Origin: Moniliella sp. 'wahieum'
Lineage: Eukaryota
DNA length: 64,000 nt
Direction: 5' to 3'
Assembly (NCBI GenBank): GCA_003971905.1
Contig: RSEE01000011.1
Span: 558,001 to 622,000, forward strand
The notes under the pieces are model-generated. The model was not told where the DNA came from. It ran no database searches and saw only the letters and a list, made by a program, of their open reading frames with translations. Position 1 is the stretch's first letter. Each line of letters starts with the position of its first letter. A program made the translations under genes and the position numbers. Shown one piece after another: positions 26,743-64,000 of the stretch.

Positions 26743-28073
26743 CTATAAAGCTCTGTCTACGTGTTTGGGATGGTCCAAACAGATAATGAATGGCGGGCTA
26801 GGTGAGATCGTGTTGAGACCTAATGGCGTGAAGTGTGGTATTTGAGCCATGTGAGAAGCAGCGCATAGATAATGCCGTATGCTGCGTGAAGCTTCAGTTT
26901 GTGGACAAAAGAGACGCTTGCATTGGCCTGGCTCAACTCCAACATCAACACGGATGTAAGGCCTAAGGCCTGAGGTTAGGCCTGTGGCGGCGCATGCGCA
27001 TTCTGTAGGAAGGAGGGGTTGAAGCATCCGAGTTGCCGATAGTTGTCGGTTACCGGTTACTGGCCTTACCGGTTACTGGCCTTACCGGCTACCGATTACC
27101 TCCGGTGGCCTATGGTAACGGTAACTACTAACTAGTAGCCGGACAGTAGCCGGTAACCAGTAACACTACTAATAAAAGGGTGCAGGGTCGGAGTTAGGTC
27201 TGACACCTGTCTGAACCAGCCGACGGCAGCAGTTGTGACAGCCATGTGCGCTCGCAAGTGCCTCGTCCCGCCCACCTATCAGGTTATTGGGTCTTGAGAA
27301 ATGTTCGACAGAACCTAACCGCCGGGCCGCATTGCTTTTACTGCGCCTCAGGCCTCAATACGCCCGCTGAGACAAAGCGCGTGGGTGCGTATCTCCAGCC
27401 ACGTCAACATGCTGACGTCGCACTCATGGAGGTGCACTATACATGTCGCCCGAAGCACGCTATCTTCAAGCTCCAAGCTTCAAAGCTCAGCCAATCGATC
27501 CGACCTCTTCGTCAAATGGGTCGTGTGTGTGACAATGAGCCCACCTTACACCGGGGGCACACACAGCCGCATGCTAGATCCTGCGAACGATTCAGCCAGT
27601 GGGCTGAGGCGCTGCGGACTGAATATCTGAGCCTCATCGTCGCCCCCGCGGCTCCAACTTGTGCACTTACACAACCAAAGCATCTGCCGCGTGTCTCGAC
27701 GATCGAATCCGTCCCTATTCTATCCCATGGGATTCTCGGAGGGCGGGTTGCTGATACACGCGCGCACGCCCTCTCTCTCAGAGCCCTTTAGTAGGCTGTC
27801 AAGTACAGCATGTCGCCAACGCTTGATGCAAGCCTGATGTTACTGCTCCAAAAATAGCTGGCCCCGTACCCGGTCACCGGTACCCTTAGATTATCATGCG
27901 CGCCGCACGGGCCATCAGCCACTGGTTGACGTGCTGTCGCCCCGGAACGGAATCCATTAAAAACACGCGTAGTTGTGGCACCTTAAGATGCTATAGCCTT
28001 ATCCCCCCTTCTCTCCTTCCCTCCCTCCTCCAACCACCACATCTCCACATATCCGTCGTACCACTTCACCGAT

Positions 28074-29039: not shown

Positions 29040-30031
29040 GGTATTCATTTAACCTTCTGAAACAGTTGGTTCACCAGTACAAATGAAGTACAAGGGTATG
29101 AGCATAACAACCGTTGCCAAGTATAATGGGGGTAGTTGCCGACGTTGCCAAAACAAGGAGAGGCCTTTTTTGGATAGTACAACCACGCGTCACCGGGCAA
29201 ATATACGGTAAAGATCGAAGTAGTATAGGCCACAGTAGGGAGATATTTTCCGACCCGGAGGTTGCACACTATGTAACTCGACAGCGCTGTCTGCGTTCGA
29301 CCTTCATACGGAGTGTGCTATTTTCCGCCCTACAAATACTAGGCGACGATGGTCGAGTTGGGTTCAGCACATTCAACACACTCAACGTTCAACGTTGAGT
29401 TCAGTGTTAAGTTCAACGCCTCAGCACACAGAGCAGGCGCTGAGTTGGTTGAGTTCAACTTTTTCAGCGCTCGGTTCGAAGGCTAAGGCCTGAGGCTGTG
29501 ACCGCGTGAGCGCTGGCCCTAGCCGGCGTCCTGAGCGTAAAGAGACCATACAATTGTGGGAGGCGAGCAAGGCAGGAGCGGAAGTGGTGTGGATGCAATC
29601 AAGGGGAAGGCAGCCCGAAGGCGCAACAGGAAGGGGGCAGAACAGAGGCGGAACAGGGCCGCCTCGCGATGTTGAAGCTCGAAGAAGGCAGCTGTGGTGG
29701 GACAACGGTGTGTGGCGTGCTATTTGTGTGATACCGACGGCGGGGAAACGATCACTGATGCACGTACTGATGCATCGCATCATGCATCATGCATCATGGC
29801 TGAGGCTCAGCGGTTCAGGCGCAGGGCGCCCAGGCCTGACGGTGACCGGCTGACCTTAGGCTGGGTGCCGATGAGGCCGAGGATCGATGGTCAGAATGTC
29901 AGATGCAGATTCAGACAGGCAAGCCCTGGTGGCCTTCAAGCTTCAAGCTTCACTCGGTGTGCGAACATCCTGCCGCCGCTCCCTTGAAACTTGACTTCTA
30001 CACAACCATCCGTCACCATCTCGCCCTCATT

Positions 30032-35707: not shown

Positions 35708-36993
35708 GCCCAAGAAGCGGGTAGAGAACGTGGATGGGGAGGTGGCTCAATAGGGTGGCAGAGAGGAAGGTGGGGGGGACGAAGTGCGTGGGCAGAAGGC
35801 AGCCAGCGACTGGTGAGGTGGAGGATGGCCCACCGGCAATCTCCGCCAGTGCCCCGCCTCCTCCGCTGCTTAAGCTGGCCCCTGTTCTGCCTGGGAAGTC
35901 AAGCTTCCAGCTTCTGTCCAGCTTCAGGTGCAGGAGCATGGCCATTAGCTAGCCGGGAACATCACTGGTCCGGTCACTGGCCACCAAGCCACGGCCGAGG
36001 AAGCGCAGAGCACGAGGCCTAGTTTCACCCACAATCTCAGCGAAACGGCCCCCGTGCCCGTTCTCAGCAGATCTGCAGCCAGGCACCCCGGGTGAGCGCG
36101 GTCAGCGGCTCAGCGCCATAGCCTGCATATAGCATAGCCCTCCTGAGTCCTGATCCCATAGCGCTTCGCGGCGGAAGGGCACGCGAGACTGGTGTGGTGC
36201 CGGCCTGGCCCAACGCCGCCCGCGGCAGCACAGCCACCAGGCCCCGAAGCGCCCCCGCGCCCCCATTGATGTGGCTGGGAATGCAGCCCAGGAGCGGTCT
36301 CTCTCCATCACACACACTACTGAGTCCTTTAGAGCTTTGGGCCACGTCTGAGGCCTGACGCGGCTCTGGGCCGCTGCCGCCGCCCGATGGGACGGATGCA
36401 CTGATGCATGGAAGGACTGCCCTTGCAAGATTCACGCATCGGAGACAGTCCACATGCATCATGCATCACATGTCACAGCTGAAAAATGTCGCTGTATAGT
36501 CGAGGAAAGACGAGTAGCACCAAGTACTCAGTTGAGTACGTTGAGTACTCAAGTTGAGTGAGTACTCAGGTAGGTAAAAGATTCGTTGGTAGTGAGTACG
36601 AGTAGACGTAGAGGAGAGTAACTAGTAACATCATGGCTAGAAGGGAGACATGGGAAAAAGTTGAAGCACTACTGGATTATCTAGCAAGAGGGTCGTGGCG
36701 CGTGACGCCTGGTCAATGGTCGCCGGTCACCGGTCACCGGTCATTCGTCCTCGTCCTTGTCATGCGCTTCGCTCGTCGCGCGTCGATGGATCGATCATAC
36801 AATGCAGGATGATGTCGATGATGTGCATGATGGGCATGATGCATGATGCATCGAGAGCCACCCACCGATCACCGCATGATGTACCCGTTCAGGCCAACCC
36901 TATTTGTTTCTTTGTTGCTGGGGCCTACAAGTGATTTGCGTTTGGCGATCGGTGGCCGGTGGTAGGTGGGTGGATTTCTACCCATTTGCGAAG

Positions 36994-37092
36994 AGCTTCA
37001 AGCTTCAAGAGCTTCAAGCTTCCAGCTTCAAGCTTCAAGAGCTTCAAGCTTCCAGCTTCAAGCTTCAAGGTTCAAGCTGAGTAGCTTCAAAC
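36994..37092. repeat. (AAGCTTC)n palindromic-heptamer array with a 30-bp higher-order period
   Basis: Directly visible; the 30-bp period holds from about 36994 to 37069. Confidence 0.95.
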
Positions 37093-37184
37093 TCCTAAGT
37101 TGAATCAATCAATCAGCGCCCGACCTCAGGGGCCTGTGCCTCAGGTATCAGCACGTCACCGGTCACCCTCTCAGACCTTCAGAT

Positions 37185-37244
37185 ATCTCAGACTTACTCG
37201 TGAGGCTCATGCGCATCTCAGACTTACTCGTGAGGTTCATGCGC
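37185..37244. repeat. 30-bp tandem duplication ATCTCAGACTTACTCGTGAGG(C/T)TCATGCGC x2
   Basis: Directly visible; 1 mismatch. Confidence 0.95.
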
Positions 37245-38202
37245 ACTAGCGAAGTTACTAGTTACTATTAGTGACTTATGACTGTCATAGTCACTAGCGT
37301 TGAGCCACCGGCTGGCTCGTGCTCTGGCCAACGTCCCTTCTGTTCCTCCTCGGGCCCTCGGGCCTAGGAGTTCCGTTCTTCTCTCTGCTGTTTTTTCCTT
37401 GTTCCGCAGCTTAGCCCCTGGTGGCGACTCCCTGCTTGATGTTCCTCTGTAGGCGTTTCTGGTTGGCTTAGATCATTACCACCACCAATGGGTTGCAGGT
37501 CTCATCAATTAGTGACTTTCACTGAGGGACAGCTTGGATGATCGATGATCGATGATCGATGGTCTCGACGATCGATGTCGATGAATAAGTATGTCCATTC
37601 CGCCTCCGGTGCCACAAAAAATTGGACCGCGAACTTATCTGTGGTCCCGGTTCCATTATCCGTGTTATGCATGTCATCCGATCGTCAATCTTCACACAGT
37701 CATTCTGCTCCTGTTGCCTTTTTTTGACGTTTCCTCCACCAGCTAGTATAAGTCGCCTCTTGTGGAGCGATTACCATTATCCCTCCAACCCACAAGTTGT
37801 TGGCATAGCCTCTCAGTTTTGCGCCACGATTTTCAGTACTCGACAACGTACTCCACTCCACAACACTCAACGCTTGACCTGTGTTCGGGCTATAACGCGT
37901 AACGCCAGAAGCAGACGTCGGGCCACATGTCACTAGTGATCAACGTTACACGTTGCCTTCCCCACCCCCTCCTCAAATTGTACACTCACGCAAAATTGTA
38001 TACTCACTGGCCATCATACTATACTCGTTCTCCTTCTATTCTGAGAGGGGTATTGGCCTGATGGTAAAGCGGTGCCTGGTATAAAAATGTGGAGTAAATT
38101 GGATTTGTGAACATTTCGTCTGCTTAGCTCAGCCCCGCTGGTCCTTTCTAGCTTCGATTGCTGGACGTGGCGAGCAAGTGGAGCTCCTGGATGGTAACGA
38201 CG

Positions 38203-39033: not shown

Positions 39034-40572
39034 TCCTCCTCATTCGCCTGTCCGGAATGAGACGTTGGTGTAGCGATGGCAACGATGCGTCTCACTCGAC
39101 GATTTAGGGGAGGCAAGCCAAGGCCCATCAATCATTCGCCTATATCCAATGCTTCCTGGTCTCCATGTTTTACCGCATTTGCTTGCTTGTGTTCGTCGAG
39201 GACTTTCCCTCCTGGTAACGAGGGACAAGGTCATTGAACCTTGTTCTGGCCTGCGTTACCCACCTCCCGTTATACTCATCGATCCGCTTCCTGCTAACCA
39301 TCTTACCTCAACGACAACCAGGGATATAGGTTTTCTTCGAGGAAAAGTCCTATATTGCTCACGTTAGCGTTATCCCAAGATTCGGCATCCATAGGAACGG
39401 AAATGCTCTGTATGTGATTTTGTGGGCGAAGTCGGGAAAGGCAAAGTCATAACTTGGTGGGAGAAACAATGCTATACCTGCGCAACCAATGGATCACAAC
39501 TCAGAGCTGCATGAGTAGAGTGGACGTTCACGTTTGACTCTGCTGACGATAACTACGGGTATACATCCAAATACCATAATGGGGTATTATCCGCATACCA
39601 TGCCTCCAAGTCAAAGCCCCCTCTTTCTTCAATGGTCTTATTTGTTTCGCTGGAAAGCCCAAAATGGTTCTCCTCTCGAAGAGAAAGACAGAGATATGAT
39701 AGACAGCTAGGGCCAAGTTTTCAAGGTACATCTAATCTTGTACCCACAGTATCTATATCACAGTACCCAGGTGGGTGTCGTCAGAGAGACTAAAATAGCG
39801 CGGGCAGCATCAGTGTGATCAGTGTTACTATCGAAGCAATCATATACAGGTAACGTTAATTTAACGCAATATCGGACCGCTTCCTGCTGGGGCGTCCATC
39901 GCTCATGGTGCCTGTGCACTCTCCCATACGAGATCCCTCCTTGTGCGGAGGGCTGAGGCGCTGGCTCACCAGTCGGTAATCGTTTTGGCATTCTCATCGT
40001 CTTGCGGCGCGAATGAAAGCAGAGTGCACACTTTACAGCTAGGACGATTAGGACCTTTTGTCCCGCCGCTTGAACAGATGCGCGGTTTGGGATGCTCGGT
40101 ACAATCATTAATCAGTACTCAGTGGGCAACTATATCCGGTGGGCAAAAGAACTTGAAACATAATATTCCCTTTATTACCTCCCTGTGCCCTCTAACAGGT
40201 TTTAGTGCTTTAGTTCGCTTTTTCATTCGGAATTCAGTGCAGGTGTATGGTGCAGGTAAACCTGGAGTCCTAGTGGCCCTCGAGGACGATACAATCGCAC
40301 TGTTGTGGTGGTGGTCTATTGAAGCCAGCCAGGAACGCTTATAGAGGAACATGATGCTCCTGCATCAAGCACAGCCAATCGCTGCCAGGGCCTAGGCTGT
40401 GCGACAGACGCAATAAGACAACGGAACACGACATTATAGTAGGCCTAAAAAGAGAGACTGAAGGGGGGCACCTAATAAGTATAAAGAGAGTCTTCCAGCA
40501 TCGTAGTGCACATCTAGTTTCCATTCCTATCATATCTCACATCAGCCCGCCACGTTCCAAGTGCTTGAATAT

Positions 40573-42430: not shown

Positions 42431-45144
42431 AGCCTCCTATCACCGCCTCAATTTCGATTTCCCACCACATCAATCAATCTTTCGGGTATAATATATGGAG
42501 CGATTCAAAAGGCGGCTACGCTGTTTTTGCGCGGAGAGGTCATAATGCCACTGTGACCACATTGATCTGATTCCTGAAAGAGCCGCTAACGGGCTCTCTT
42601 ACTCAGTGCTCATATTCCGGTGTAGCTTGGAGTAAGTACGAGAAGATAGAGATGCACAACTGCGTTCTTTCATCTTCTCCAAAGTAAATCCCCTCCTCCT
42701 CTTCTATCCTCTCTCAGGAAGAAGCTGCATACATTCCAACATGTTTTGTTGGGGCACCGTCCACACCCAGACGTGAGCGCCCAGCTGAGCCTCGGCCTCA
42801 GGGGCGACCATCCTCTGACACGTTTTCCTCCGTCGTGGACTACGGAAGAGTTGGCCGAGGGTGAGGCGGTGAGGTGAGCGTTACAAACCAAGTTAGTGGT
42901 CACTACCGACCCCTTTCTGACATCCATGACTATCATGACGATCATGACTGTCATAGATTAGGACCTTTACTTTGATGTCATAGACATCAAGTAATAACGC
43001 AGCTGTTCTCGATGACGGGGACGGTAGTGATGTCCATGACGTCAGATACGAAATGGATGTCATTGGCGACATGGATACGAGACTCGCTCAGGGTATCAAA
43101 GACATCAGGGAAGGGGAAAACATCAAAGGGTTACGCCCTATCAATGATAGGGTTCACGTCAAATATGTCGGCGATGACAGCACTACCAAAGATGCCTTAG
43201 ACGTCGTGGGTGCCTTAGACGTCGGGGGTGTCATTGACGTGAGTGATACCATAGGGGTAATAGATCTCCAACAATGGCATTGATGTCCCCGGGGACCCCG
43301 ACATCAATGTCTCCGCAGCTTTCCATGGCATCATTGCATCCGCCGATGACACTGTCGACATCGAGGACTATGACTGCTCTCCTGTTGCATACACGTTTCT
43401 TTGGGGGACTATAGAATAATAATGGCTAATCCTATAATTAAACCACAAAAAAGGAGATCTGGTATTTGGATAGATTGGTATTGCATATCGTGCCAGGTCA
43501 CCACATGTGTTCGAAGGGTTAGTATCACAGACGCTGCGACGAGGATCAGCGGGTACAGTTGCACCGGAGTCTCAGGGATGGCATCCAGTGAAATGCCCCA
43601 CTGGTTTCACAGTCCGTTAGACAGCTTCTCCACCTGGTTGTATATTCAGCAAATCGAGACAGAGATGAAGGAGGATGGGAATGCGCATCGCCGGAAGGAT
43701 CCTGCCCTCCACGCCGTTGAGGTTGCGGTCATACTCTCCCAGGTTGTGTTTGACAACCTTCTTGTGAAATGAGGCCACACTGACGACACCCAGCGTGGGT
43801 CCGCGGGCCTTACTTACCCAGTGGTGCGTCTCCACCTGCAAGTGGGTTCGGGTAGAAGCGTTCAGAATGTACCGTGAAGAGGAAAGGAACCAATTGAAGA
43901 TACGCACATTAGTTACGATCTCGTAGCGGATGACCGCTATGGCTAGCGTTATTCTTGCCCGTACTTCTTTGCCTAGGCACCCTTTATCATCAGTTGCAGC
44001 ATCGATAACGGTGCCAGGAGGCCTTGGTCTGGCAACGTGACTTTTGGCCCATTCCTGCTCAACCCAACCTTCCTTTCTTCCTTTTGTCAGAGAGAAAGCT
44101 GGGTCTCGAGCGATTCAAGATAGATAGTACATACCGCACAAAGGCACCTAGATGAGACGCTTCCCAAGGAGCCTTCATGGAACGCATGACTAGCTGTTTA
44201 ATGTACTTGCGCTGCAAAACCAAAATGCCTTTAAACGGAAAAAGATGCTGTGGTCAGCCTTAATCATCTGAAGATGAAAAATGGAGGCATACAGACATAG
44301 GGCGGACTTGGCCAACAGCATCTCGAGTCCGCTTTTCTGCGTCTTCATCCTGGCTCGCAGTGGCCTGCGACATGTGGCCGTCCGCGTCATGATCTCATGA
44401 AGAACTTTCCGTTTTGCGCTTTATGGAGTTCATGTTGCATTTCGTTTACCCCACTTACGGCTTCGCGGACGTCTGCGACCTGATCTTGGAGTCGGATCAT
44501 GGCCCTCCACATGGGGTGTCGAGCACGTCATGCTCTGCACAACAGGCGGCTGGCCGAGGCTTGGAAGTCGGCTTGGAGGTGAACAAACGTATAATGGCCG
44601 AGGTGTGCGCGGATGTCGTCCGGCTGGTCCTGGATGCAGTCTGGTTGCCTCGCCCGGCCACTGGCTGTCATCAAAATATCCACATCGGGTGTGATGGGGG
44701 CCATATCGGGACTGGCGGGGTCCGAAAGCGTTCAGACGTTGGAATGAATAAGAGTTGGCCTCGCCTTTAATAACTGCCACTAGTGCTACTAACCATTTGC
44801 ACATGAGAGCTACAGAGGCTAGAGAATATACTCCTGCCCTCCAGGAAGGAATATTGGAAGGATTGATAAGGAAGCATCCGCGCTTAGGCTGCGCCTTTTC
44901 CCTACAGTGGCGCCACTTGGCGCTTGGCGCTTGGCCTGGTATACGCCACATGGAACCGTGCTGCAACTGTCACAGATAGGGCGAGTACTTGCACTGTGTA
45001 GTGCACCCTCCGCTTCGACGGACATACTAGCGCATGGAACCGTGTCCGGTGGGCTGAATAATGATGTGAAAGACCAGAGAGCAGGCAGTTGACGGTGTAT
45101 TGCATTTTGCACATGAGCGGATGAGCTACAGAGATGGTATGGGA

Positions 45145-45495
45145 CGTTCCGGTGTCTCTCGATGCGGAGCCACACATGTCATAGGCATCTCTTCCAAACA
45201 CGTCATCAGTCTCTACATGCCTAGCAAGAGAGAGCTACAGTAGTAAGGCATAAAGCGCAGTCACAGTTCTGTCAAGTCCGCGGTCCGGTAGGCCGCAGCA
45301 GACAAAGGGTTCTGCCAAGACTGTGGGCGCAATGGGAACAAATCATCGTACCCATGCGCCCATATTGAGCGGGCTGCGAAGGATGCCAGCTGCATGGATA
45401 GATAAGCTCTCTCTTGCTAGCCTATGTAGAGGCTGACGTGCTAGTAAGAGATGCCTATGACATGCGGGGCTCTGCGTCGGGAGACACCGGAGCGC
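45145..45495. repeat. About 90-bp imperfect inverted repeat around a spacer of about 170 bp (MITE-like or inversion relic)
   Basis: 45149-45237 (CCGGTGTCTCTCGATGCGGAGCC..CATAGGCATCTCTT..CTAGCAAGAGAGAGC) is the reverse complement of about 45405-45490. Confidence 0.85.
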
Positions 45496-45718
45496 CTCGT
45501 AACAAGAATCAAAAGAAAATACAGAGGCTATATATAGAGAATATGTGCCTTCCAGGAAGGAGTATTGGAGGACAAAGGAGGCACCCGGTTGCTCAACACC
45601 GTGCTGCAACTTGGGTCAATTAAAGGACATTAGATTACGATTACACCGAACCATGCCACACTGATGCTAGAGTGCGACTTGGGAGCACTCGCGATCCTAT
45701 GGATCAGCTGCGAAGCAG

Positions 45719-45873
45719 CCTTCAGACAAGGCGTGAAGGCAAAGTGGTGAGCCACAAGTCTTCAAGCAACGTCTCATTGTGAGGAGCAACAGGTCAAGAA
45801 AGGAAGCAGAGGCGTACCTTCAGACAAGGCGTGAAGGCAAAGTGGTGAGCCACAAGTCTTCAAGCAAACGTCT
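45719..45873. repeat. About 55-bp direct repeat x2 (CTTCAGACAAGGCGTGAAGGCAAAGTGGTGAGCCACAAGTCTTCAAGCAA..CGTCT)
   Basis: Directly visible at about 45719-45775 and about 45818-45873. Confidence 0.95.
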
Positions 45874-46065
45874 GAAGGGAAGGAGAAAGGAGAGAGAGAA
45901 GGGAGATGGAGCGAGCAGGGCGTGCGCGGCCTGCGAGCGGAACGCTTCCGCTCGGCTAGGCGAGCGTCACCGATCCATTGAGGGCCGCGCAGGAGAACCC
46001 TAGCAGTACCTCTAACAACTGAGAGGAGTGTGGAGTTACTAGTTACTAGTTTTCTCTATACTGCA

Positions 46066-46812
46066 TCCCTATCATTGACAGAGCTTTAAAGGCGTCGCGG
46101 TGCTCTCATGTACCGCCTTCCGGTACGCGGTCTGCGCCTGCCGCGTTACGCGTTACATGAGTTGCTTGTTTGCTCAGGCCGACGAGACCAATTTTCTCAC
46201 GCCCATCGTATTTAGATGCTTTGGGATGCACCTTACACTACGCAGCCCCTGTGCTGGCGCCGCACGGGGCCGCATGAGAGCACCAGTACAACCCTGCTGC
46301 CTGCGGCGCCATCGACTGATCGCCTACTGCGATTCTCAGATCTCATGCCAATCGATAATCTCTTCAAGCTTCGCTTCACTAGCTCTTCAAGCTTCAAGCT
46401 TCAAGCTTCAAGCTTCACTAGTCGCTAGTCACTAGCTCCACCAGTACTCTAGTACTCTTCGTACTACGTGAGGCCGGGTGAAAAAATGGGAAATGGGAAA
46501 CGCCCCTGTGCACTTTTACATCAGCGCGTGCCACGTTCAGTCCACCCAGCCAGCGCGTATCTCTAGGGGGAACGGTGGCTAAGGTGGCGGCCAAGCACCG
46601 AGCTGGGGCGAAGAGCTGACCGGGCGCCGCCGTAGGCCCGGTGGTCTCCTCGTTGGTGATGTTATTTGTCTCTCCAGCGTGGAAGGGTTCCAGCGTGGAA
46701 CGGTGGACCGGTGGACCAGTGGAACGGCGGCTACGGTGGCAACGGTTGACCCAGCCCAACAGGCTGGGGCGAAGCCTCAGCAGACCGGGCCGTGGGCCCG
46801 GTGGTCTCCTCG
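46066..46812 (+). mobile_element. Non-autonomous Helitron-like element, copy 1, with two tandem 3' ends
   Basis: 5' A|TCCCTATCATTGACAGAGC. 3' hairpin CCGGGCC-GTG-GGCCCGG followed by TGGTCTC-CTCG|T at 46812; an internal second 3' end at 46652. Termini shared with 62460-62828. Confidence 0.7.
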
Positions 46813-48499
46813 TAACCCATGTGTGGTGCTGAGGCGAGTGGCTGGGCTACACGTGCTATTAGGTCAGAACTTGGCATCGAGCTCTCTGTTTTATTAAAAG
46901 GGGGATGTCTGGCCCATCGCTGGCCAACTGTGGCGAAGCAGCGAATACGCGGCAAACACATCCAAGGAGGCGGAAACAGCGGCGGAACATGGGGCCATCG
47001 CCTCGCACAAAGACCCCTCTGACGGCCATCATCGAGGTTGCATAAGCAGATCCAGGGACCATTCATTGCCTTTTGCTTGAACATTGAAGCTTGAAGACTG
47101 ATGGCACTGACGTCCTTGTGGTCGCCGATAACAGATTTGACCTCACTCGCGTCCTTGACACGAGGATAGCAAGGGAGAGCCGAGATGGCGCTGACATCCT
47201 GGATGTCAGAATAAATAAGGTTTCTGATATCAGCGACATCACGGCCACGATGGATATTGGTGACGTGTACACTATCAAAAGGGGTCGGTAGTGGTGCAGT
47301 TGTTGAACGTTGAATATTGAATGTTGACTTTGGGCGGCAAGTCGGCCAACGCCGAATCATTAATCACCAAAACAATCTCCCCACATGTGCTATGAACATG
47401 CGACTGTCACGCATGCAGCATAGACGCCCCAGTAGGCCAGTCTCTTATGCATCCCCTATCACACATTACGCGTGGCAATGCGATGGTGCCAGAGGCGCCT
47501 GAGGCCTGGGGATTGTCGATTGCTGCGCAAGGGCTGCATAGCCGATGCACTGATGTGCTGTGTGACAGTACCTGACTGACCGGTGACCAAATCGATGATC
47601 GCTGAAGCGCTGAAGCGCTGAAGCTTGAAATGAAGATTGTTTTCCACTATGCGACGACCAGTAGGGTTTTACCTGGTCTGCCATGTGTGCTCTGGGGCGC
47701 CTCATCGATCATCGGCCTGAGGTGGCTCGTGCGGGGGGAGTCACCGGCAGGGCTGCCATGCTGCACCGGCAGACGCCAGCAGGTGGGGCGGAACACAAAA
47801 GCGCATCGATCCCATCCCAGCGTCTACTACGTATCGGCGGGCGGAGGGTCGATGGCAGCGCTGCGCCAGCCGCGCCAGCCTGCGCCAGCCTGCGCCAAAT
47901 GCAGCGCCATCGGCTGCCCCGGGAGGCTCTGGGCCCGTGCTTCCACCCGCGGGGCTGTCCTTGCCACCGCCTGCCGTCCTTCCAGTGCGCCTTGTGATCG
48001 ATATCGGCTAGTCGCGACGAGAGACAGGGGCAGCGCGCCATTGTCGCCATTGCGGGGAAAGGCACGGCGTGGCGTTGGACCCTGGCAAACCTCTATTAGG
48101 CCATTTAGGCATTCGGCAGGCTCCAACGTCGCTTCTGCTCCGAAGGCTAGTGCTGGGACGCGAGAGCAATGCGCAGTGCGCTTGCAGGCTGAGAGTTGGG
48201 GGGGTTAGCCGGTTAGGGCACAGGAGGGCACAGAGCGCAGACATGCGTGCTAGTGGCTGCCCAGCCAGCGCCCCAGGCCTTGGCCAGCACGCTCAGTAAA
48301 ACTAGTGACTAGTGGCTAGGGATTTCACTATAGCGCTAGCGAGATCCCAATCATCCGCTCGACTTCGGTTGGCCCTTCGTGTTTCTCTCGCCACGCTTCC
48401 TCTCCCTCCCCCCGCCCCCTCCCGTCCTCCCCCGCGACCTCCCCCCCCCCCCCCCCCCCCCCCCACCACCACCAGCAGCTGGTGCAGCACTGGGCGAAC

Positions 48500-50352: not shown

Positions 50353-50868
50353 CCTCCTCCTTGGTATCCATCCTACATCCCCCTTCTGAGAATATCGCCT
50401 TTTGTACCCATGGCCGTTGCCCCAAGCTGTAACAATTGCCACGAATGGACTCTTTTGAAATAGGAATGAAGGCAGAGTCTCCAAGTCTCTGATTGTGCTG
50501 GTGATCTTCCTGGTGATCTCAACTGTCGTGTATATCCACTACGACTTCCCGCCGACATCATCGTTCTCTCCATCTTTTTGACTCTGCCGTCGCTCTTGAT
50601 TCGCGCCACTCTTTTTTTCTGTACTGTGCATTTTCCATCAACCTCTGCTCTCTCGTACCGGCCTGAGGCCTAAGGCCTGATATGCGGCCATGTTACAAAT
50701 ATCACACTTCTATTATACTTTGCTTCTTCCTTATGATACGGATGGCAAAAGTTTGACCTGGGAATCATTGTCGGTATTATACCGACTTGCTGTATCGTTG
50801 TTTCTTCATCATTACGAGCGTAATGAGCGAGAGGATTTACATGTGTTCTAATCCCCTCCAGGCCAATT

Positions 50869-51427: not shown

Positions 51428-51963
51428 AGTCTTGGTATGGTGTGTGACGACGGAGCCGGTGGTGGGGGAGAAGAGGGGAGAGACGATACTCCAGTTATCA
51501 GGGGTAGCGTCCGTGCGCAAGGAGGTGTGAGAAGAATTCCTGTTAGACCGAGGGAGGCTAAGGGCGGTGAGGGAGGCTTCCGGACTGTGTGACAGGGTGA
51601 TGCTCCTCTTCTTGATTATACGGCGCAGCGGCGTGGGGGGTCTTGACGTGGCTGGTGTGTCTGCCACCCCAAGGACATAAATGCGATTGAGATACATGTA
51701 ACTCTCAGAAAAGTGCCTCCGCCCATAGAGGGAGCAGGCCTCCGAGTAGCGAAAGAAGTGGTAGTGGTAGGGTCTCTGTACGACAACACCGCGCTTGCGC
51801 TGTGGCCTGCTGTGCCCCCCAGTAGTGAACACTTCGAAGATCAGTTGAAACGTTCAGCCTTGTTTTTGCACCGACTGATGTTCATGAAGCTTGATGAAGC
51901 TTGAAGTGGGAACTGTGAACTTTTTTTTTCCCACCTTGTTTGCCTGAAGCACCAGCCACCACC

Positions 51964-56274: not shown

Positions 56275-57904
56275 CCCCTCGCATTTAGCTTCTCTTTCCC
56301 AATTGCTTCTCTGTGTCCCGGGGCACACGTCGCAGTGACAAGGATATGTGCTCTTTCTTGCGGAGCACGGAGTGACTCGCTCAGTTGGCCGTGGTTGCCT
56401 GACGCATTGTGGCCCACCTCAATCACTGTCACATGTTTCTCATGTATGTCATACGCTGGCAAACCGGCCTTCCGTTGCGCCCAAGAACTGCAAACTGCAG
56501 AATGTGCTACGCCCTTGTTGAGCATTTTTGAACGTCTGACATTACAGGTGACGTTTGATGGCTGTCACTTGCGTTCTCCGGCATTGTGCTGCACACACTT
56601 CGTCGGTCTACCGACACATTGCGTCCTTCACATTGTAGAAAACTGTCACTATCAACATTGGGATCGGCGTACACCCTCCCACGGGACAGGGCCACTCTAT
56701 CCAGCCTGATGACCACCACCTAAACTGATAGGCATAGCAATCGGGATACACAAACTGTCTGAGCCAGAGAAGGTCACTGAGGTCAATATTCGATAGTAGA
56801 TATGTGTAGGCAATATCGAACTGCATTAACCGTTGGCACTTAGCTTGATCGGTTCACCCCCCGTAATATACGCTTTTTGTTTGTTCTGGAGAGAAGTAAC
56901 TAGTAGACCCCGAAGAGATCTTGAACATTTACCATGATATCATGATAGGTCTCACCCGTTTAGTAGACAGTCCGGCTCGTCACCACGTTTCGTCCTCTTG
57001 ACTATAGGCGTGCGAGCCCGCGGCGTCCAGTATGCACAACTTGTCATATTCTCGCTCTATCTGTTCTGAGAGTGTGGACACCGCCTGCCGGGTTGAACGT
57101 TTTGAACGTTGACCACGCAATGTTTGCGGATTTCCTTCGTTCATGCAGATCCATCGACCCCTCCTTGGTGCGCGGTGCGCGTATACGGAATTGACCACCG
57201 AGAGACTAGTGCACTACGCAGCACGTGTACCCGGTGTCCACCGTCCACCATATCTTTTTGTGGCCACATCATGCCTGTCCGTCCGGTCATTTACCATCAT
57301 GTGGTTTGGCGTCTTCAGCGCGAACAACAGAAATGCATGGATATACGTGCGCGCCGCCAGCATCAACTGCGTCAACGTACTTATTACTTCTCTCACTATC
57401 AATCCCCGTGAGTTTAGCTACGTTGGCTCTCAGATCCCACGGCGCACATTCGCACGAATTCATACCTAGGGCCTATATGGGGGCGGCGTTGCTAACCCGT
57501 ATAGTGACTAGGGCGTGACGCGAGCTAGTGACGCGTGACGGCAAACCTTTTGCTTGACGTTAAAGACTAAACTCACTGAAATCACTTGCACGACGATCCA
57601 AAAATGCCGATCCCCCAGCAGAGGGCCCAGTGTCTGCACTCTTTCCCAGGGGTAAGATGCTCACAAAACACTGCCCCTACGCTATACATGTCTGGGGGGT
57701 GACACAGGCACAAGGGCAGAGGAAATGCTTGTGGGCTGACAGGAACGACACTGCCGGATGCTGCCTATTCCCGCGCGCAAGCAGCTCGCGCTCGCGCTGC
57801 GATCAGACAAGGGGCATACAAGCGGCCGCGGGTCAGAGAGGGACAAAAGTGTTGTCCCTGCCTTCTTCCAACCTCCACACCTCCCACCGTTTACCGATCT
57901 AAAG

Positions 57905-60062
57905 ATGAAGACCCAATCCTCCCGCACACGCAGCCGGACGCTGCTTCGTGCAGCTCTCCTCGCTGGCGCTGTATCGAGCGCCGCGCCCATGCGCCCTTGA
58001 TTGAGCGCCGTCATGTCAACCGTGCCGCGGGTGCACCAGCTGGTATCTCGAGCAACCCCCAGTCCTTTGACGGACAGACGTTCGACTATGTCATGTCGGA
58101 GGCGGCAATGCCGCCTCGTGGTGGCTTCGCTTGAGTGAACAGGCCAACCTTACGGTCGCCGTCATTGAGGCCGGGCCTAGAGGAGAAGGCGAGCCCAGCA
58201 TCACCACGCCAGCTGCGAACGTACGTTCTTTTATTTCGCCATCGCTTGCAACATCCTGGCTACCTAACATCAACTCTGCAGCTTACAACTCCTCCGTTGG
58301 TACCGACATGGACTGGTCCTACAACTACGACAGCTCAAGCCAGTTGATGAACCGTCAGCCCTTGGCCCCGGGGTAAGACCCTGGGTGGGTCCAGTGCGAT
58401 AAATGGGCTGTACCTTGTACGCCAGCCCGAGGTTGAGCAGGACAGTTGGGCGAACCTCATTGCGAATGGTACGGAGACCCAACATTTGGGCTTGGGACAA
58501 CGTGCTTAACGCTATGAAGCGGAGCGAGACCTACACCCCTGTTGACGACGCTGCTGAGAGCATCATTGCCGCTGGTGCTGGCTCGGCGGCATCGTCGAAA
58601 AAAAGTTTGGTCCCTTATACGTCCTCCAACCACGGTACCTCGGGCCCGATCCATCACAGCTACCCCGGCTACTCGTACGAAGATGGGTGCGTTCTCGAGT
58701 CGGCGGCAATCGCGACGGGCCTCGACATCAACCAGGATGCTTACGGTGGCAACAACTCTGGTCCGTTCCTGTCCATTTCGTCGATCAACCCTGGCAACTG
58801 GACCCGTTCATTTGCCCGACAAGGTTACCTCGATCTGTCGTCTACCGAAGCAACTTGCATGTTCTCACAGGGTTACAGGCAACCAAGATCAACTTTGACA
58901 CCAGCAACCCCCCAAAGGCTGTGGGGGTTAGCTTTGCTGCCTCCCCAACCGGTTCCACCTACACAGTCACGGCCAAGAACGAGGTCATCATCTCGGCTGG
59001 AGTTATTGGCTCTCCCCAGTTGCTCCAGTGTCGGGTGTGGGTGACAGCTCAGTGCTGAACCCCTTGGGGATCAAACAAGTGGCTAATGTGCCGGGTGTAG
59101 GATTCAACCTACAGGACCACCTGTCTACATCCGTCAAGTTTTCTCCCGTAGTCAACACTACCATTGCCCCTGCTCAAGTGACGGGCAATGCGACGGTGGA
59201 CAGTTATGTCAACTCAGCTACGGCTTACATCCCCCTCAGCAAGATTCTGGGTAACAATTCTCAACCCTTCATTGATGGTTACAAGCCACATTTCCAACTA
59301 TGTGGGCCTACGATGCCCCCCGATACGGTCAAGGCAGGGTTTAATGCGACAAGCTACGAATTGGCGTACAACATGTACCCCAAAGACGTTCCCGCTGTCG
59401 AGATTCTCCTGGGTAACACCTATGGCAACATCCTCGTTGAGTGTGGTCTTCAGCACCCTGTTTCCCGTGGCAGCGTCAAGATCAACCCACCTCGGCGTTT
59501 GACAAGCCTCAGGTGGACCCGGGCTATTTGCTGCACGAGGAGGATGTGACGATCATGCGTGAAGGGCCGTATGGCCCGCAAGGTTGGTTCCACGCCTCCC
59601 CTGAGCACTTTGCTGGTACCGAGGTGTCGCCCGGCGCCACAGTCCAGTCCTCGGCTGACTGGAACACCTACGTGGCCAACACTCGTCCGGTACCGAGTAC
59701 CACCCTTCGTCCTCTGCTCTATGCTTCCCCTTGAGCTGGGAGGCGTTGTGGATTCCGAGTTTAACGTGTACAACACACTCAGAACCTGCGCGTCATTGAC
59801 TCATCCGTGCCCCCGCTTTCCATGTCCCAACACCTCATGACCATCACGTATGGCTTGGGCGAAATTGGGGCTGACCTCATCAAGGCCAAGGCCAACGGTG
59901 TCAACTACGGTGTCACCACCAACACCTCTTCTTCCGCACCCCATCTCCTCCACCTCTGGAGGGAGTACGGCAGCCAAACCAAAGTCTAGTGACGGGTCGC
60001 ACCTCATGACCTCAGTGATGGGAATGCTCGTTGCTGCGGTGGCTGGTGCAAGCTTGTTCTGA
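57905..60062 (+). CDS. Secreted GMC oxidoreductase (AA3_2, glucose oxidase/dehydrogenase-like) with GPI-type C-terminus
   Basis: Signal-like N-terminus, FDYV..GGG, VAVIEAG, GKTLGGSSAING, EVIISAGVIGSPQLLQ.SGVG, GFNLQDH, EYHP..CSMLP..GGVVD, LRVIDSS, SQHLM (His/His pair), then S/T-rich linker and hydrophobic tail. Confidence 0.93.
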
Positions 60063-60423
60063 TCCCTTCATATCTGCCCTCATGGTAGTTTTTACCCTTT
60101 CAGTCACGCTCAAATACCGCATTCACGATCCCTGCCTATTACGTCTGCTCTCTCTTCACGCCTAGTTGTGGAAACCCGGGCGGCATTTATCGTCGTGGAC
60201 GCCATTTCCCATGGGCGTCTGACCTTTCGCTTGTTCCACTATACACCCTCCTCTTTCATGCCTCTCCCCCTTTTCCGTTGGACACTTTTTTAGTTATTCA
60301 GTTGCTTTTTCTCCCTCAAGTGTTTCTTCAAAGAATTTATCGTCTGCCGGTGTGCTGCCTACTGAGATCAATCAGAGCTCTGAAGTAGCTTTTGCAGAAC
60401 TCAGTTTATAAAAACTGAGCCAA

Positions 60424-60950
60424 TTGACTCTCCGCCATTCTATCCACCCCGTGCCTCTCCGGCTCTCTGACAAGCAGGTTCAGGTCGGTCTCCATCCGCA
60501 CGCTGTGCTGCTCCACGCGCAGCATGTGCAAGTGCGGCGTCTTGTCCTCGCTGGAGCACATCATGGCTTGCGCCCACACCCAGGCCAAGTTTATCGGGTT
60601 GCACGAGGCAGTACGGGAGCCATTGTCGATTATCCAGCTCGTGCGCTCCATCCCCGACACCCACGTCCTCATGGAACCTGCTGTGGAGGAAGAGGATGGG
60701 TCGAGGCACGGGCGGAAGGCGCTGCGCACCAACTACTGCGTGATGGGGCCCGGAGCAATCGGAGTATCAGGAATGGAGGTGGACCACTTGCTGCGCGACA
60801 CGGGATCGTAGGAGGCGCAGAGCGCGTCCCGGAGGGTGGTGCAGGAGAGCACCGCAACGCCTTTGGAACGCCGAGAGAAGGAGCTGCTTCGGCTGCTGGA
60901 ACAACAGAATGCGACAAGAACGCCAAGTAATACCACTGGGATGCACCCAC
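60424..60950 (+). mobile_element. Degenerate 3' fragment of an RLE-type (CRE/R2-like) non-LTR retrotransposon
   Basis: PLRLSDKQV, CCHC knuckle CKCG-x5-EHIMAC, HEAVRE, V-x2-EP, RT(N/D), REKE. This order matches the zinc knuckle plus restriction-like endonuclease region; there is an in-frame stop at about 60809. Confidence 0.5.
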
Positions 60951-62459
60951 AAGAGAATAGCCTTCCTAAGGCCTAAAAGCCAGTCGAGGGTGATCTGACA
61001 GGTGACATCGGGTTACATCGGGTTACATGGTTACATCGGGTTACCGATTAGCGGTTAGCGCTTAGCGGTTATTTTGTTGGAGTATGGTGGCATGTGGCAC
61101 CACTTGGTGTGATGGCTTGAAGCTTGAAGCTTGAAGTATCAGTCTGTCGTCTGAGACCTGGAGTCCTGAGGCCTGGGCCTGAGGCCGGGGCTAAGCTGCG
61201 GAACCCTTGAAAAAACAGGAGAGAGAAAACAACGGAACTCCCACGCCTGAGGAGGAACTGAAGGGACATTAACCAAATCACGAGCCATCTGCACAGTGCA
61301 ATCGTCCATAGTTTTTGTGTTGACATCCGTCCTAGGACACCGCGCGGACACTGAGTCACGTGAGTCAGTTTTCATTCCTTCCAAGCTCGCATCAGTCTTC
61401 TGGACGATTCAGTCACAGAAGCTCCTGCGTCCAATACGACGTTCAATCTCAGCTGAGGGCTCACATCCTATGGCAGTGGCGAGGCCGACAGCTTGGTGGC
61501 GTAGCTACTTCTCAGTTAAACGTGTTAAACGTTAACGCGTAACGGACAACGGCGGTTCTGGCTCTCACTGGTGTGAGATATTTATCGCGCTTAAGCTTAT
61601 CCATTGATCGCCCGTTAGTGCTTCGCTCTAGCCCCCATTCTTTCAGTTATGTGCAATGTGTGCATTATGGTCAAAGCTGCAACAAAATCGTGTTTGCTGC
61701 TTGCCGGCATCTCGGGCATTCGGCTGGCACACCCGTTCCTTTTCAGGCACTCTGAGCCCCTTTTTGTGGGGGTTTCATTCGTAAGGGCTTCAAGCTTCAA
61801 GAAGCTTCAGCGCTTCAGTGCTTCAGCGTCAACTAGCAACTAGAGATCCCGTTCCGACTCAAAAGTGTTAAAAAAGAGAGGAGCTGCTGTCTTGTCACAT
61901 GTCACGTAGAGTTCGCGGACTATAATCATGCATGCGTCATGTATATATCATGCGGCATTGAGTCCCGTAACGCGTAACGCGTAACGCGGAAGGGAACGAT
62001 CCGCGGACAGGAAGATGTGGGAGAAGAAACTGAATCGGACCACCGAGGCGCTCAGTGCCAAGAAAAACAAAGGGTAGATGTCACAGTCGGGGCTAGGGCG
62101 AGGGAGGCCAGCCAGAGTCGGAACTAGAGGTCAAGGGATGTCAGCAATCGTTCGTGGGGAGGAAGCAAGAGCAGAGGACACGGTGCGAAGCTGAAGAACA
62201 GGGACTAGGGAAGGGGCGAGACGCTCGGGACGAAGGAAATAGAAATAGGAGCGAAGTCACTAGTCACTAATAGGCGCTAGTCACTACTCTATATAGTCAC
62301 TAGTCAGCGAGTCAGCGCTAGCCAGCGCAGTCAGCGCTCAGGCAAACGATGACAGTAGATATCACATACATCAGCGTATCACAGAGAAGATCTTCTGATT
62401 TTTATACATCCGTCCATCTGTCGTGTTCCCATCGCAGGGCGCTTCATCTCCCTTTTGAA

Positions 62460-62828
62460 TCCATATCATTGACAGAGCTTAAGGCTGGGACAGGGGGAAC
62501 GATACGTCTAAACCGAACCGTTCATCTTGCGGGGGTTACTTGAAAGCGCCACTAAGGTCCTATAACGCAGACCCCCTTTTTCTTTACGTCATGCTTACCT
62601 ATTTGTTTGCGCGGGCGGAATGCGCACCCCACCCCCGCGTGCTCAGCCATGCACATGGGTGATAAAATTCCTCCAGCGTGGAACAGTGGAACGGTGGCTA
62701 AGGTGGCGACGGGGAACGGTGGCTACGGTGGCGAAGGTGGACCGGTGGCTAAGGTGGCGACGGTGCACCAAGCACCAAGCTGGGGCGAAGCCCCAGCTGA
62801 CCGGGCCGTAGGCCCGGTGGTCTTCTAG
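62460..62828 (+). mobile_element. Non-autonomous Helitron-like element, copy 2 (369 bp)
   Basis: Starts A|TC (TCCATATCATTGACAGAGC) and ends CTAG|T. Subterminal hairpins GCTGGGGC-GAA-GCCCCAGC and ACCGGGCC-GTA-GGCCCGGT lie just upstream of the CTAG. No target-site duplication. Confidence 0.8.
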
Positions 62829-63487
62829 TTAATCATTAATCATTCCGTTCCGAGTAGATTCTGCCGTTGTCATTGCAGGGCACAACATGCTTCAAGTGAA
62901 GCTTCAGCGCCTTCAGCTTCAAGCTTGAAGCTTGATATATCAGGTCATCGATCACCGGCACCCCACATGCTCGTCTCTCCATGGGGATTACCGGCCTTAC
63001 CAGTTACCGGTTATTCTTGTACTATCTATCGTCCCACCAAGTTCTCTCCATCTCATTCAGGACATGATGTATGATGTATGATGATCGATGATCGCTGACA
63101 TAGGACAGGGGACATGTGACGTGCGGGGCACGAAGAGGACGTCCACTTGCAAAAACCTAGAATACCAACCACCATTAATATAGTAGGACCAAATTAAAGC
63201 CGTGCCCTCTATGAAGTCCCCCTAGTCCTAGCCATTCCGTACATGTGACATGTGTGACATGAGCATGCGAGCCCGCGGGGCCCCAACCACACTGGTCTCA
63301 GAAGCATGCAAGCCCCCATAATACTGTGAGGAGATTGTTCTCCTTAGGACCGGCACCGGGGGATCTGCATACTTAAGTAATAAACCTCTTCTTCATTTCC
63401 ATCGCTATCCATCTAAAGTTGTACCCGACATCAGCCGCACCACCTTCGCTCATTGTTACCAATATCGGCACTGGGGTTTTCCTGCAG

Positions 63488-64000
63488 ATGCTACGCCAAG
63501 TTCTATTACTGGCTCTTGCAGCCGTCCATCTCGTTCAAGCCATCCTTACCCTGAACCCGACCCGGTTCTTGGCTGGACTGGCGTTGAAACGCTCAATCTC
63601 CCCCGTGCAACCGGTCCAACGCCCGCACTGCAGACCAATGGTACCGGCCGTTGGGTCGAGGCGATCGCGAAGGCCAAGCAGGCCGTGGCCAAGCTCACCG
63701 ACGAAGAAAAGGTTTGGCTTGTGACAGGCACCGGGTGGTTGGCTGGCCAATGCTCTGGCAACATTTGGCCTCTCGAAAAGATCGGGTTTAAGGGCTTGTG
63801 TCTACAGGACGGACCTCTGGGTGTACGTGGAGCCGACTTGGTTACAGTTTGGCCCACAGGCATCACCACTGCTGCCCACATTCAGCTCGAATCTCACCCG
63901 TGCCCGCGGCGTTGGTATGGGCGAGGAGTTCCGTGCCAAAGGGGCCAATGTCCAACTGGGCCCCGGGATGAACATGCTACGTGCTCCAGAGATGGACGAA
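63488..64000 (+). CDS. GH3 beta-glucosidase, secreted (5' part; runs off the window)
   Basis: Signal MLRQVLLLALAAVHLVQA, then AKLTDEEKVWLVTG, CSGN, LCLQDGPLGVR, WPTGITTAA, MGEEFRAKGANVQLGPGMNMLR. Confidence 0.93.

Follow-up and report, generated by a model that had tools for sequence, protein, structure and literature searches.

Arrays of 4-base palindromes between T-N-A triplets as possible scars of site-specific cut-and-repair in the intergenic DNA of a basidiomycete

In the 64,000-nucleotide stretch of contig RSEE01000011.1 of Moniliella sp. 'wahieum' analyzed here (hereafter the window, to whose full length all counts refer unless other DNA is named), the intergenic DNA contains numerous short arrays in which T-N-A triplets (TNA; N, any base) alternate with 4-base palindromes (pal4). 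An earlier note on this DNA had described such a unit, TNA-cd-d'c'-TNA, at one place near the end of the window and at two further places; the observation is confirmed and extends far beyond the reported spot, with 81 copies of TNA-pal4-TNA found across the window. On the reading favored here, each event adds exactly 7 bp, consisting of a direct copy of TNA and its two adjoining bases together with a loop-free inverted copy of those two bases. We tentatively read the arrays as scars of site-specific cut-and-repair at T-N-A, produced by transposon excision, and give this reading a chance a little short of even; the interpretation of the earlier note, which proposed hairpin footprints of a cut-and-paste transposon with an nnTNAnn target, is partly supported.

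Tandem Repeats Finder detected many period-7 arrays in the intergenic DNA, and among exact repeats of at least 14 nt there were 41 of period 7, compared with 14, 14 and 4 of periods 8, 9 and 10. The unit rotates to abTNAb'a' in 26 of these 41 repeats, and its centre is T-N-A in all 26; among the remaining 15 are C-rich tracts and units like CTTGGCG, GCACCAA and ATGATGT. Identical 6-bp palindromes spaced by 7 occurred 19 times with A as their first base and never with C, G or T (third-order Markov, or Markov-3, expectation at most 0.14), and the 74 pairs of identical 4-bp palindromes at the same spacing were separated by TCA (18), TGA (9), TAA (5) or TTA (2), the remainder being scattered. Odd palindromes with arms of at least 5 were TNA-centred in 41 of 102 cases. 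When the triplets that bracket a pal4 were varied, TNA gave 81 occurrences as against 8 for ANT, 16 for CNG and 23 for GNC, and chains of at least two units numbered 23 for TNA and 2, 1 and 0 for the other three bracket pairs. TNA-pal4-TNA with the same N in both triplets (same-N) was found 64 times, whereas simulations (100 each for Markov-3 and Markov-5) gave means of 1.9 (maximum 6) and 4.7 (maximum 11), respectively. A full 4-bp palindrome filled 81 of the 179 TNA-4nt-TNA sequences, where 11.2 were expected, and at least 14 of the 16 possible 4-base palindromes were used. No enrichment was seen for 2-base, 6-base or two adjacent 4-base palindromes between TNAs, or for TNA-TNA spacings of 5, 9 and 11. 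The density amounts to about one scar per 250 bp of intergenic DNA, with approximately 55 arrays in the 64 kb. Palindromy was confined to the inner pair in 17 of the 179 sequences, which is no excess, and to the outer pair in 32. Many of these outer-pair-only cases (e.g., those at 47078, 47318 and 62997) differ from a perfect palindrome by a change of CpG to TpG/CpA, and the apparently decayed forms include ACAT or ATGT from ACGT and CCAG from CCGG, which hints at CpG decay, perhaps through cytosine methylation, in the intergenic DNA.

The shortest members of the family are the most informative. The same-N TNA-pal4-TNA sequences lie in 55 distinct exact period-7 runs, whose lengths are 10 nt (2 runs), 11 (6), 12 (11), 13 (12), 14 (2), 15 (8), 16 (5) and at least 18 (9). 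The 24 runs of at least 14 nt do fit whole-unit copies, but 31 of the 55, with a mode of 12-13 nt, are shorter than two units; the minimal members are not whole-unit duplications, as head-to-tail copying in a slippage satellite would make them. In all 11 runs of exactly 12 nt the extension is one-sided, either (2,0) or (0,2) but never (1,1) ((2/3)^11 = 0.012), so that the smallest product is the 12-mer TNAxy-y'x'-TNAxy, that is, a 5-base direct repeat joined by a loop-free 2-base inverted copy. Examples are TGA CGCG TGA CG at 57528..57540 (repeat TGACG, filler CG, extended on the right side only), TGA CCGG TGA CC at 47577..47588 and, in mirror orientation, CC TAA GGCC TAA at 60965..60976. In a direct search for any 5-mer u followed by the first m bases of its reverse complement and then by u again, the class u=TNAxy at m=2 had 38 matches on the + strand and 41 on the - strand, and no other 5-mer class had more than 5; the total of 79 on both strands compares with 0.2-0.94 in simulated sequences. 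Fillers of m=0, 1, 3, 4 and 5 for u=TNAxy gave 3, 2, 0, 1 and 0 cases. The 5-nt direct repeat TNAxy at a distance of 7 has the form of a target duplication retained at an empty site, and the filler, which is the reverse complement of the two bases that end the repeat, has that of a loop-free P-nucleotide-type copy.

The flanks of the arrays follow the same grammar. There are 63 chains of TNAs joined by 4-base palindromes, and in 31 of the 48 chains with a single palindrome the flanking dinucleotide equals the adjoining palindrome half (chance 12%, P=2e-17), on the left only in 10, on the right only in 11 and on both sides in 10; the 17 unmatched chains include 7 perfect 10-bp palindromes and 2 with an unrelated N. 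Ten chains are full two-unit duplications. All four chains that contain two palindromes of different types read ab TNA b'a'ab TNA cdd'c' TNA cd, so that each palindrome mirrors the flank on its own side: ca TCA TGCA TCA CATG TCA ca at 36459..36475, aa TCA TTAA TCA GTAC TCA gt at 40105..40121 (probably in an intron, within the span of the striatin gene), gt TGA ACGT TGA ATAT TGA at at 47304..47320, and gt TAA ACGT TAA CGCG TAA cg at 61526..61542.

The behavior of the central base N is less decisive. The N of adjacent triplets form 81 pairs, which agree in 64 cases, are complementary in 11 (C/G every time) and differ otherwise in 6. The flip of N to its complement that the earlier note had pointed out is real and accounts for 11 of the 17 switches, which is more than a 1/3 null (P=0.008) or a 1/6 transversion-type null (P=1e-5) would give, but when the N of the arrays themselves are paired at random the excess loses significance (P=0.096). 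TSA (S, C or G) already makes up 70% of the TNA sites in array-bearing intergenic DNA, so the C/G bias of N mirrors the background. Five of the six non-complement switches are A/G, most of them in GGCC arrays, as in TAA GGCC TAA GGCC TGA at 26957..26973 (A to G) and TGA GGCC TAA GGCC TGA at 50664..50680.

The originally reported place, 62889..62954, is composite and holds ten TNA triplets within about 70 nt. Its core at 62919-62942 reads ct TCA AGCT TGA AGCT TGA TATA TCA gg, a three-palindrome chain with two flips of N and a flank match on the left only; upstream of it lies TGA AGCT TCA, a perfect 10-bp palindrome (62897-62906), and downstream TCA TCGA TCA (62945-62954). The three strings quoted in the earlier note are all present, namely CTTCAAGCTTGAAGCTTGA at 62916-62935, CTCAACGTTCAACGTTGAG at 29381-29399 and GTCACTAGTGA at 37929-37939. 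The second of these contains TCA ACGT TCA ACGT TGA (29382..29398), in which two units are followed by a flip of N from C to G, and the third contains TCA CTAG TGA (37930..37939), a single perfect 10-bp palindrome that neither flank matches.

The same-N cases are densest in four intervals, 26-30 kb, 36-38 kb, 46-48 kb and 60-63 kb, and none of the 64 lies in the open reading frames (ORFs) that match Pfam (16,809 bases; P=3e-9 under uniform placement), an absence in keeping with an insertion of 7 bp that shifts the reading frame. When folded as single strands, the arrays form stems that are capped by TNA loops and interrupted by single N:N mismatches. Of the five stretches folded, three did far better than their shuffles, namely the reported place (z = -2.75; 0 of 200 shuffles as good), the array at 29382..29398 (z = -4.71) and one more (z = -4.36), whereas the other two did no better (z = -0.23 and -0.91).

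If the arrays are scars of transposon excision, the most economical mechanism is the one put forward in the earlier note, and the events might have run as follows. A cut-and-paste transposon would insert and duplicate a 7-bp target, abTNAcd, and on excision its transposase would leave both flanks as covalently closed hairpins, as the hAT, MULE and Transib/RAG enzymes do. Host nucleases would open each hairpin two bases from its tip, which is the usual opening position of Artemis, and thereby create 4-base self-complementary 3' overhangs, cdd'c' and b'a'ab; end joining would then keep one overhang and remove the other, giving abTNA-cdd'c'-TNAcd or abTNA-b'a'ab-TNAcd. Opening further off, four or five bases from the tip, would copy N as its complement and produce the C/G flips, two hits on opposite sides of one TNA would produce the two-type chains, and arrays would lengthen when either TNA was hit again and when the hairpin-prone units underwent ordinary slippage. 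An off-centre-nicked, closed hairpin end is suggested because the loop-free inverted copy sits beside its template, and a filled-in staggered cut because the direct repeat comprises at least 5 bases; insertion followed by excision is favored because it would yield both the direct repeat and the inverted filler at once. A 7-bp duplication would be required if both hairpins open at +2, because 7+2-2 = 7, but if only one side formed a hairpin, a duplication of 5 bp would fit equally, and the target may thus be 5 or 7 bp long. Several other geometries were tried and dropped: a 3-bp duplication with hairpins predicts TNA-TN'A; a symmetric 3-bp duplication predicts period 3 and a symmetric 5-bp duplication with opening at +2 predicts period 5, neither of which was seen; hAT-style hairpins offset by 1 base would put A-N-T at the centre or bring a flip with each unit; a 4-bp duplication with TNA supplied by the element ends predicts one TNA between two palindromes and not the 12-mer; and a Top2-like 4-base fill-in predicts period 4.

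What held up of the hairpin-excision model put forward in the earlier note is its geometry, which passed four independent tests in the window: the 12-mers are one-sided, the filler is fixed at 2 bases, the palindromes derive from the flanks and the two-type chains draw on both sides. Such a geometry is hard to obtain from slippage alone. The causal agent did not appear within the 64-kb window, and this is the first of several points that weigh against transposon excision. No transposase domain was found in the 216 stop-to-stop ORFs of at least 110 aa or in the 147 intergenic ORFs of 60-109 aa, and no PIF/Harbinger-type DDE transposase or hAT domain was present among the ORFs of the window. A scan for terminal inverted repeats flanked by a duplication (a 7-bp nnTNAnn, any 7-mer, TNA, nTNAn or any 8-mer) returned no such element in the window; its matches were the arrays to themselves, two or three chance-level pairs and an inverted pair at 37434/40357, which was rejected as a pair of element ends because it represents two inverted copies of a dispersed repeat of approximately 100-180 bp. 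Approximately 55 arrays therefore stand beside zero element copies in 64 kb. We regard this absence as weak evidence, as a few dozen active copies per genome could suffice by a rough estimate.

The uniformity of the product also counts against excision by a hairpin-forming transposase, or else demands a special explanation. End joining is expected to leave a spectrum of footprint variants, and hAT footprints made in this way are more varied than these scars, whose filler is almost always 2 bases long (38 cases, with 2 and 0 for fillers of 1 and 3 bases), as far as variants that preserve the period are concerned, those that break it being outside the reach of the scans. The product with both overhangs kept (period 11) was found once, without enrichment, and the product with both removed, TNATNA, showed no excess in intergenic DNA by a back-of-envelope estimate. 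Both-flank matches, present in 10 of the single-palindrome chains, exceed the roughly 1 in 16 expected for an unbiased target, which suggests that slippage or a liking for palindromic targets also contributes, and the folding of the arrays as TNA-loop hairpins makes growth by slippage plausible without any element. We know of no described superfamily that combines a TNA-centred target with flank hairpins, and the hAT target consensus nTnnnnAn would place A-N-T, not T-N-A, beside the hairpin tip.

Other DNA places limits on how general the signature may be. The array (AAGCTTS)3 was found in at least 121 metagenome contigs of many kinds, most of which hold that one array alone; among the matches listed, other TNA-palindrome arrays occurred only in L079, L047, L087, L011 and L119. 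One of these, L047, carries the mixed chain TCA AGCT TCA AGCT TTA TCGA TTA TCGA, and L079 (20 kb of a 37.6-kb contig) carries TGA GATC, TAA CCGG and TGA AGCT arrays between four ORFs with an AAA_11 helicase domain, which recur every 5.6 kb or so. Contigs of the same sample series carry fungal genes (mitofilin, MGM1, Maf1, ICE2, polyketide synthase and DUF6699), and no transposase domain was found in 116 ORFs of at least 150 aa from 11 fungal-looking metagenome contigs. Non-AGCT arrays over 452 kb of contigs with a G+C of at least 0.48 were not enriched for TNA (TNA 24, CNG 50, GNC 40 and ANT 15), and the 12-mer form over 638 kb (all loci but one duplicate) showed no TNA dominance; the signature is therefore lineage-restricted rather than universal, and its density in the window is at least ten times that in the other contigs. 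In one pair of soil metagenome contigs, L027 and L041, with 99.1% identity over 6 kb, the arrays do not differ, and the alignment of this single pair contains 7 gaps (two at the ends), none of the 7-bp insertion kind. At 5970-6030 of L027 and likewise in L041, (TGAAGCT)x4 is followed by two copies of TGAACGTT, an 8-bp relative of the heptamer, identically in the two samples.

The arrays might instead have arisen by endogenous replication and repair, without a mobile element. Hairpin-folding heptamers would then slip, template switching between the arms would flip N, and TNA would be used because a T-N-A triloop is structurally preferred, in an expansion akin to that of CNG repeats. We consider this unlikely, although several observations favor it: the folding described above, a roughly geometric fall-off of array copy numbers, the ten full two-unit chains, the wide occurrence of (AAGCTTS)3 among metagenome contigs and the fact that template switching likewise predicts complement flips. 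Ordinary tandem duplication does act on the arrays as well, because a 30-bp higher-order repeat (x2.9), built of CTTCAAG units, lies at 36994..37078. The arrays resemble hairpin-forming micro- and minisatellites such as the CNG repeats in their self-complementary units, single mismatch per unit, short length and hairpin folding, but differ from them in the period of 7, the strict TNA centre, smallest members that are not whole units and palindromes that change with the flank. After an exact tandem duplication of 7 bp, period-7 identity would always span at least 14 nt, but it falls short of this in 31 of 55 runs, and the 11 12-mers are without exception one-sided; a loop-free inverted dinucleotide is not a slippage product, and the four two-type chains, with their flank-built palindromes, are impossible by slipping of one unit. 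A structural preference should furthermore favor A-N-T too, which was seen in none of the 26 period-7 units and in 8 as against 81 bracketed palindromes, two of the five folded arrays were no better than shuffles, and the 452 kb of other contigs showed no enrichment of TNA.

Three further explanations appear less probable still. A site-specific but non-mobile nuclease, for instance a domesticated transposase, could make the hairpin lesion at TNA, in which case the scars would record host-encoded cutting of intergenic or promoter DNA. Such an enzyme would explain the TNA specificity, the stereotyped product and the missing element copy in the window, but a filled-in staggered cut gives a duplication without inverted filler and a single hairpin-forming cut gives filler without duplication, whereas insertion plus excision would explain the two together; no candidate gene was seen in the window, and we judge this explanation to be distinctly improbable. 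Selection of the arrays as cis-regulatory or structural elements of promoters or terminators (factor sites, or stop codons in all frames) seems very improbable to us. They do lie outside Pfam-matching ORFs and cluster in a few gene-adjacent regions, and TGA/TAA in period-7 arrays reach every reading frame, but TCA and TTA units hold no stop on that strand, no single binding site can account for at least 14 different 4-base palindromes, and one-sided 12-mers with flank-derived palindromes signal a mutational process, not motif selection. Least credible of all, to the point that we hardly entertain it, is that the palindromes are leftover end bases of a Tc1/mariner-like element. The canonical Tc1 footprint consists of the duplication, a short palindrome and the duplication, with the central mismatch resolved either way, and the layout seen here, with a duplicated triplet on each side of a 4-base palindrome, is the same. 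Element ends would, however, fix the 4-mer, yet at least 14 of 16 palindromes occur and match the neighboring flank, and the predicted bare 10-mer end was found in only 2 of 55 runs; the bases inserted by Tc1/mariner elements come from their ends and are constant, whereas those in the arrays are variable and copied from the flank. Many families of elements, each with end dinucleotides that match its targets, would be required. Mariner/Stowaway footprints, as described in PMC4561436, retain element-end sequence together with the target duplication. The remaining probability falls to other or unknown causes.

Among known systems, transposon excision as we propose it has its nearest counterparts in the footprints of hairpin transposons (Ac/Ds, Hermes, MULE and Transib) and in the P nucleotides of V(D)J joining. 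PMC5499845 describes how hAT, Transib, MULE and RAG form hairpins on the flanking DNA, which are opened by host enzymes such as Artemis and yield footprints through end joining, and PMC4561436 describes Ac/Ds footprints as palindromic sequences copied from flanking DNA. The likeness lies in the retained target duplication, in the loop-free inverted copy of the flank and in the complementary bases given by longer inverted copies. The arrays in the window differ in their T-N-A core, exact 2-base filler and dense stacking, and the element was not found in the window. Galileo has a palindromic consensus, and among PIF/Harbinger elements maize PIF prefers an odd palindrome centred on TTA. In the PIF/Harbinger group (Tourist and mPing/Pong) the likeness to the arrays is the need for T and A around a free middle base, and PMC4561436 describes, for mPing, 3-base 5' overhangs and precise excision; a 3-bp duplication that is excised precisely via complementary 5' overhangs leaves no inverted filler, whereas the arrays have at least 5 bases duplicated and 2 inverted bases added. 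Families of hAT7 elements with 7-bp target duplications occur in basidiomycete rust fungi, according to PMC12730594, which also gives Plavaka termini and duplications, and Galileo has 7-bp duplications according to PMC3573991. The hAT7 elements share with the arrays a basidiomycete host, a 7-bp duplication and membership of a flank-hairpin superfamily (PMC12730594 and PMC5499845), but the nearest named relatives of the window are Ustilaginomycotina (approximately 50% protein identity), not rusts, and the window holds no hAT domain.

We speculate, with slightly less assurance than we have in the excision scars themselves, that a considerable share of this intergenic DNA was produced by an undescribed hairpin-forming transposon lineage or a domesticated relative of one, whose target was 7 bp long and centred on TNA. 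If so, its past activity would be legible base by base, including the order and side of successive hits, and the scars would form a rare, dense record of cut-and-paste activity in which each array reveals the flank that supplied the hairpin. The arrays would then point to an nnTNAnn target with flank hairpins, a combination absent from the superfamily descriptions that we found, and footprints could seed micro- and minisatellites genome-wide. If no element exists, the grammar would be a new endogenous mutational signature in need of a mechanism. Either way, the arrays put frame-shifting, hairpin-prone DNA beside genes, and the 12-mer rule TNAxy-y'x'-TNAxy is a simple test that can be applied to any fungal genome. 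We found no description of TNA-palindrome heptamer arrays in fungi in the open-access literature searched.

Judging from its genes, the window is nuclear DNA of a basidiomycete without a close annotated relative in the protein collection searched, because it carries intron-split eukaryotic housekeeping genes (ATG9, a P-type ATPase, MoaA/MoaC, an amino-acid transporter, a BAR-domain protein, a tetraspanin, striatin, KRE6/SKN1 and a GMC oxidoreductase) and because the closest named relatives of its KRE6 exon are Ustilaginomycotina, at about 50-52% protein identity, and those of its ATG9 exon are various basidiomycetes. Its G+C content is 51-64%, and neither a tRNA nor an Rfam family above threshold was found in it. 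Three array clusters stand out in relation to these genes. The cluster at 36348..37939 is intergenic between the tetraspanin gene (-) and the striatin gene (+) and contributes to the 15 same-N TNA-pal4-TNA of the 36001-38000 bin; that at 46034..47714 lies upstream of the KRE6/SKN1-like gene (14 in the 46001-48000 bin); and that at 60965..63094, downstream of the GMC-oxidoreductase-like gene, holds the reported place (18 in the 60001-64000 bins).

The longest array, (CTTCAAG)x4.7 at 46385..46417, amounts to four TCA AGCT units and a final TCA, and it continues in the same TNA frame into CTAG units (TCA CTAG TCG CTAG TCA CTAG) up to about 46435. Further arrays are (GATGATC)x3.6 at 37537..37561 with TGA TCGA units, (CGTAACG)x3.3 at 61966..61988 with TAA CGCG units, (GCATCAT)x3.1 at 29777..29798 with TCA TGCA units, (GCTTGAA)x3.1 at 61115..61136 with TGA AGCT units and (CCGGTCA)x3 at 36723..36743 with TCA CCGG units. 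An array with doubled TGA and thus a 10-bp period, TGA AGCT TGA, TGA AGCT TGA AG, is found at 51885..51906. Relatives of the heptamer with other lengths also occur: an 8-bp unit, TGAAGCGC (T-GA-A plus GCGC), forms arrays at 47600-47624 and 61802-61828 that lie in opposite orientation and are 96% complementary, and 9- and 10-base relatives are TAA ACGT GT at 61515 and TGA CATG TG at 63244.

The window contains several other repeats. The dispersed family of 100-180 bp encountered in the element scan has copies at 37313-37470 (+), 40290-40420 (-) and 61187-61287 (-); the 5' part of the striatin gene lies between two copies in inverted orientation, and the copy at 37313-37470 has an 8-bp tandem duplication (CCTCGGGC x2) that is missing from the others. 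Another dispersed repeat, approximately 130 bp long and 79-84% identical among its copies at 46565-46654, 46694-46820 and 62684-62836, has no Rfam match and combines short GGTGGC-type tandem units with two strong G-N-A-loop hairpins, CTGGGGC-GAA-GCCCCAG and ACCGGGCC-GTA-GGCCCGGT. A foldback of approximately 370 bp at 45135-45504, with 71-nt arms that are 82% complementary and seemingly reach about 100 nt, and with about 170-230 nt between them, is the only copy in the window and lacks a clear target duplication. A perfect direct repeat of 51 nt is present at 45719-45769 and 45817-45867, 98 bp apart, and a 61-nt tract rich in C, which includes an unbroken run of 24 C, lies at 48404-48464, immediately upstream of the KRE6/SKN1-like gene. 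In ORF-rich DNA, a 15-bp unit (CTTCGGTTCCTCCCG) is repeated x13.9 at 25758-25965 and an 18-bp unit (GAGAAGGAGGAGCAGGAG) x6 at 23945-24052, and both arrays are probably coding repeats of a gene that has a WSD motif.

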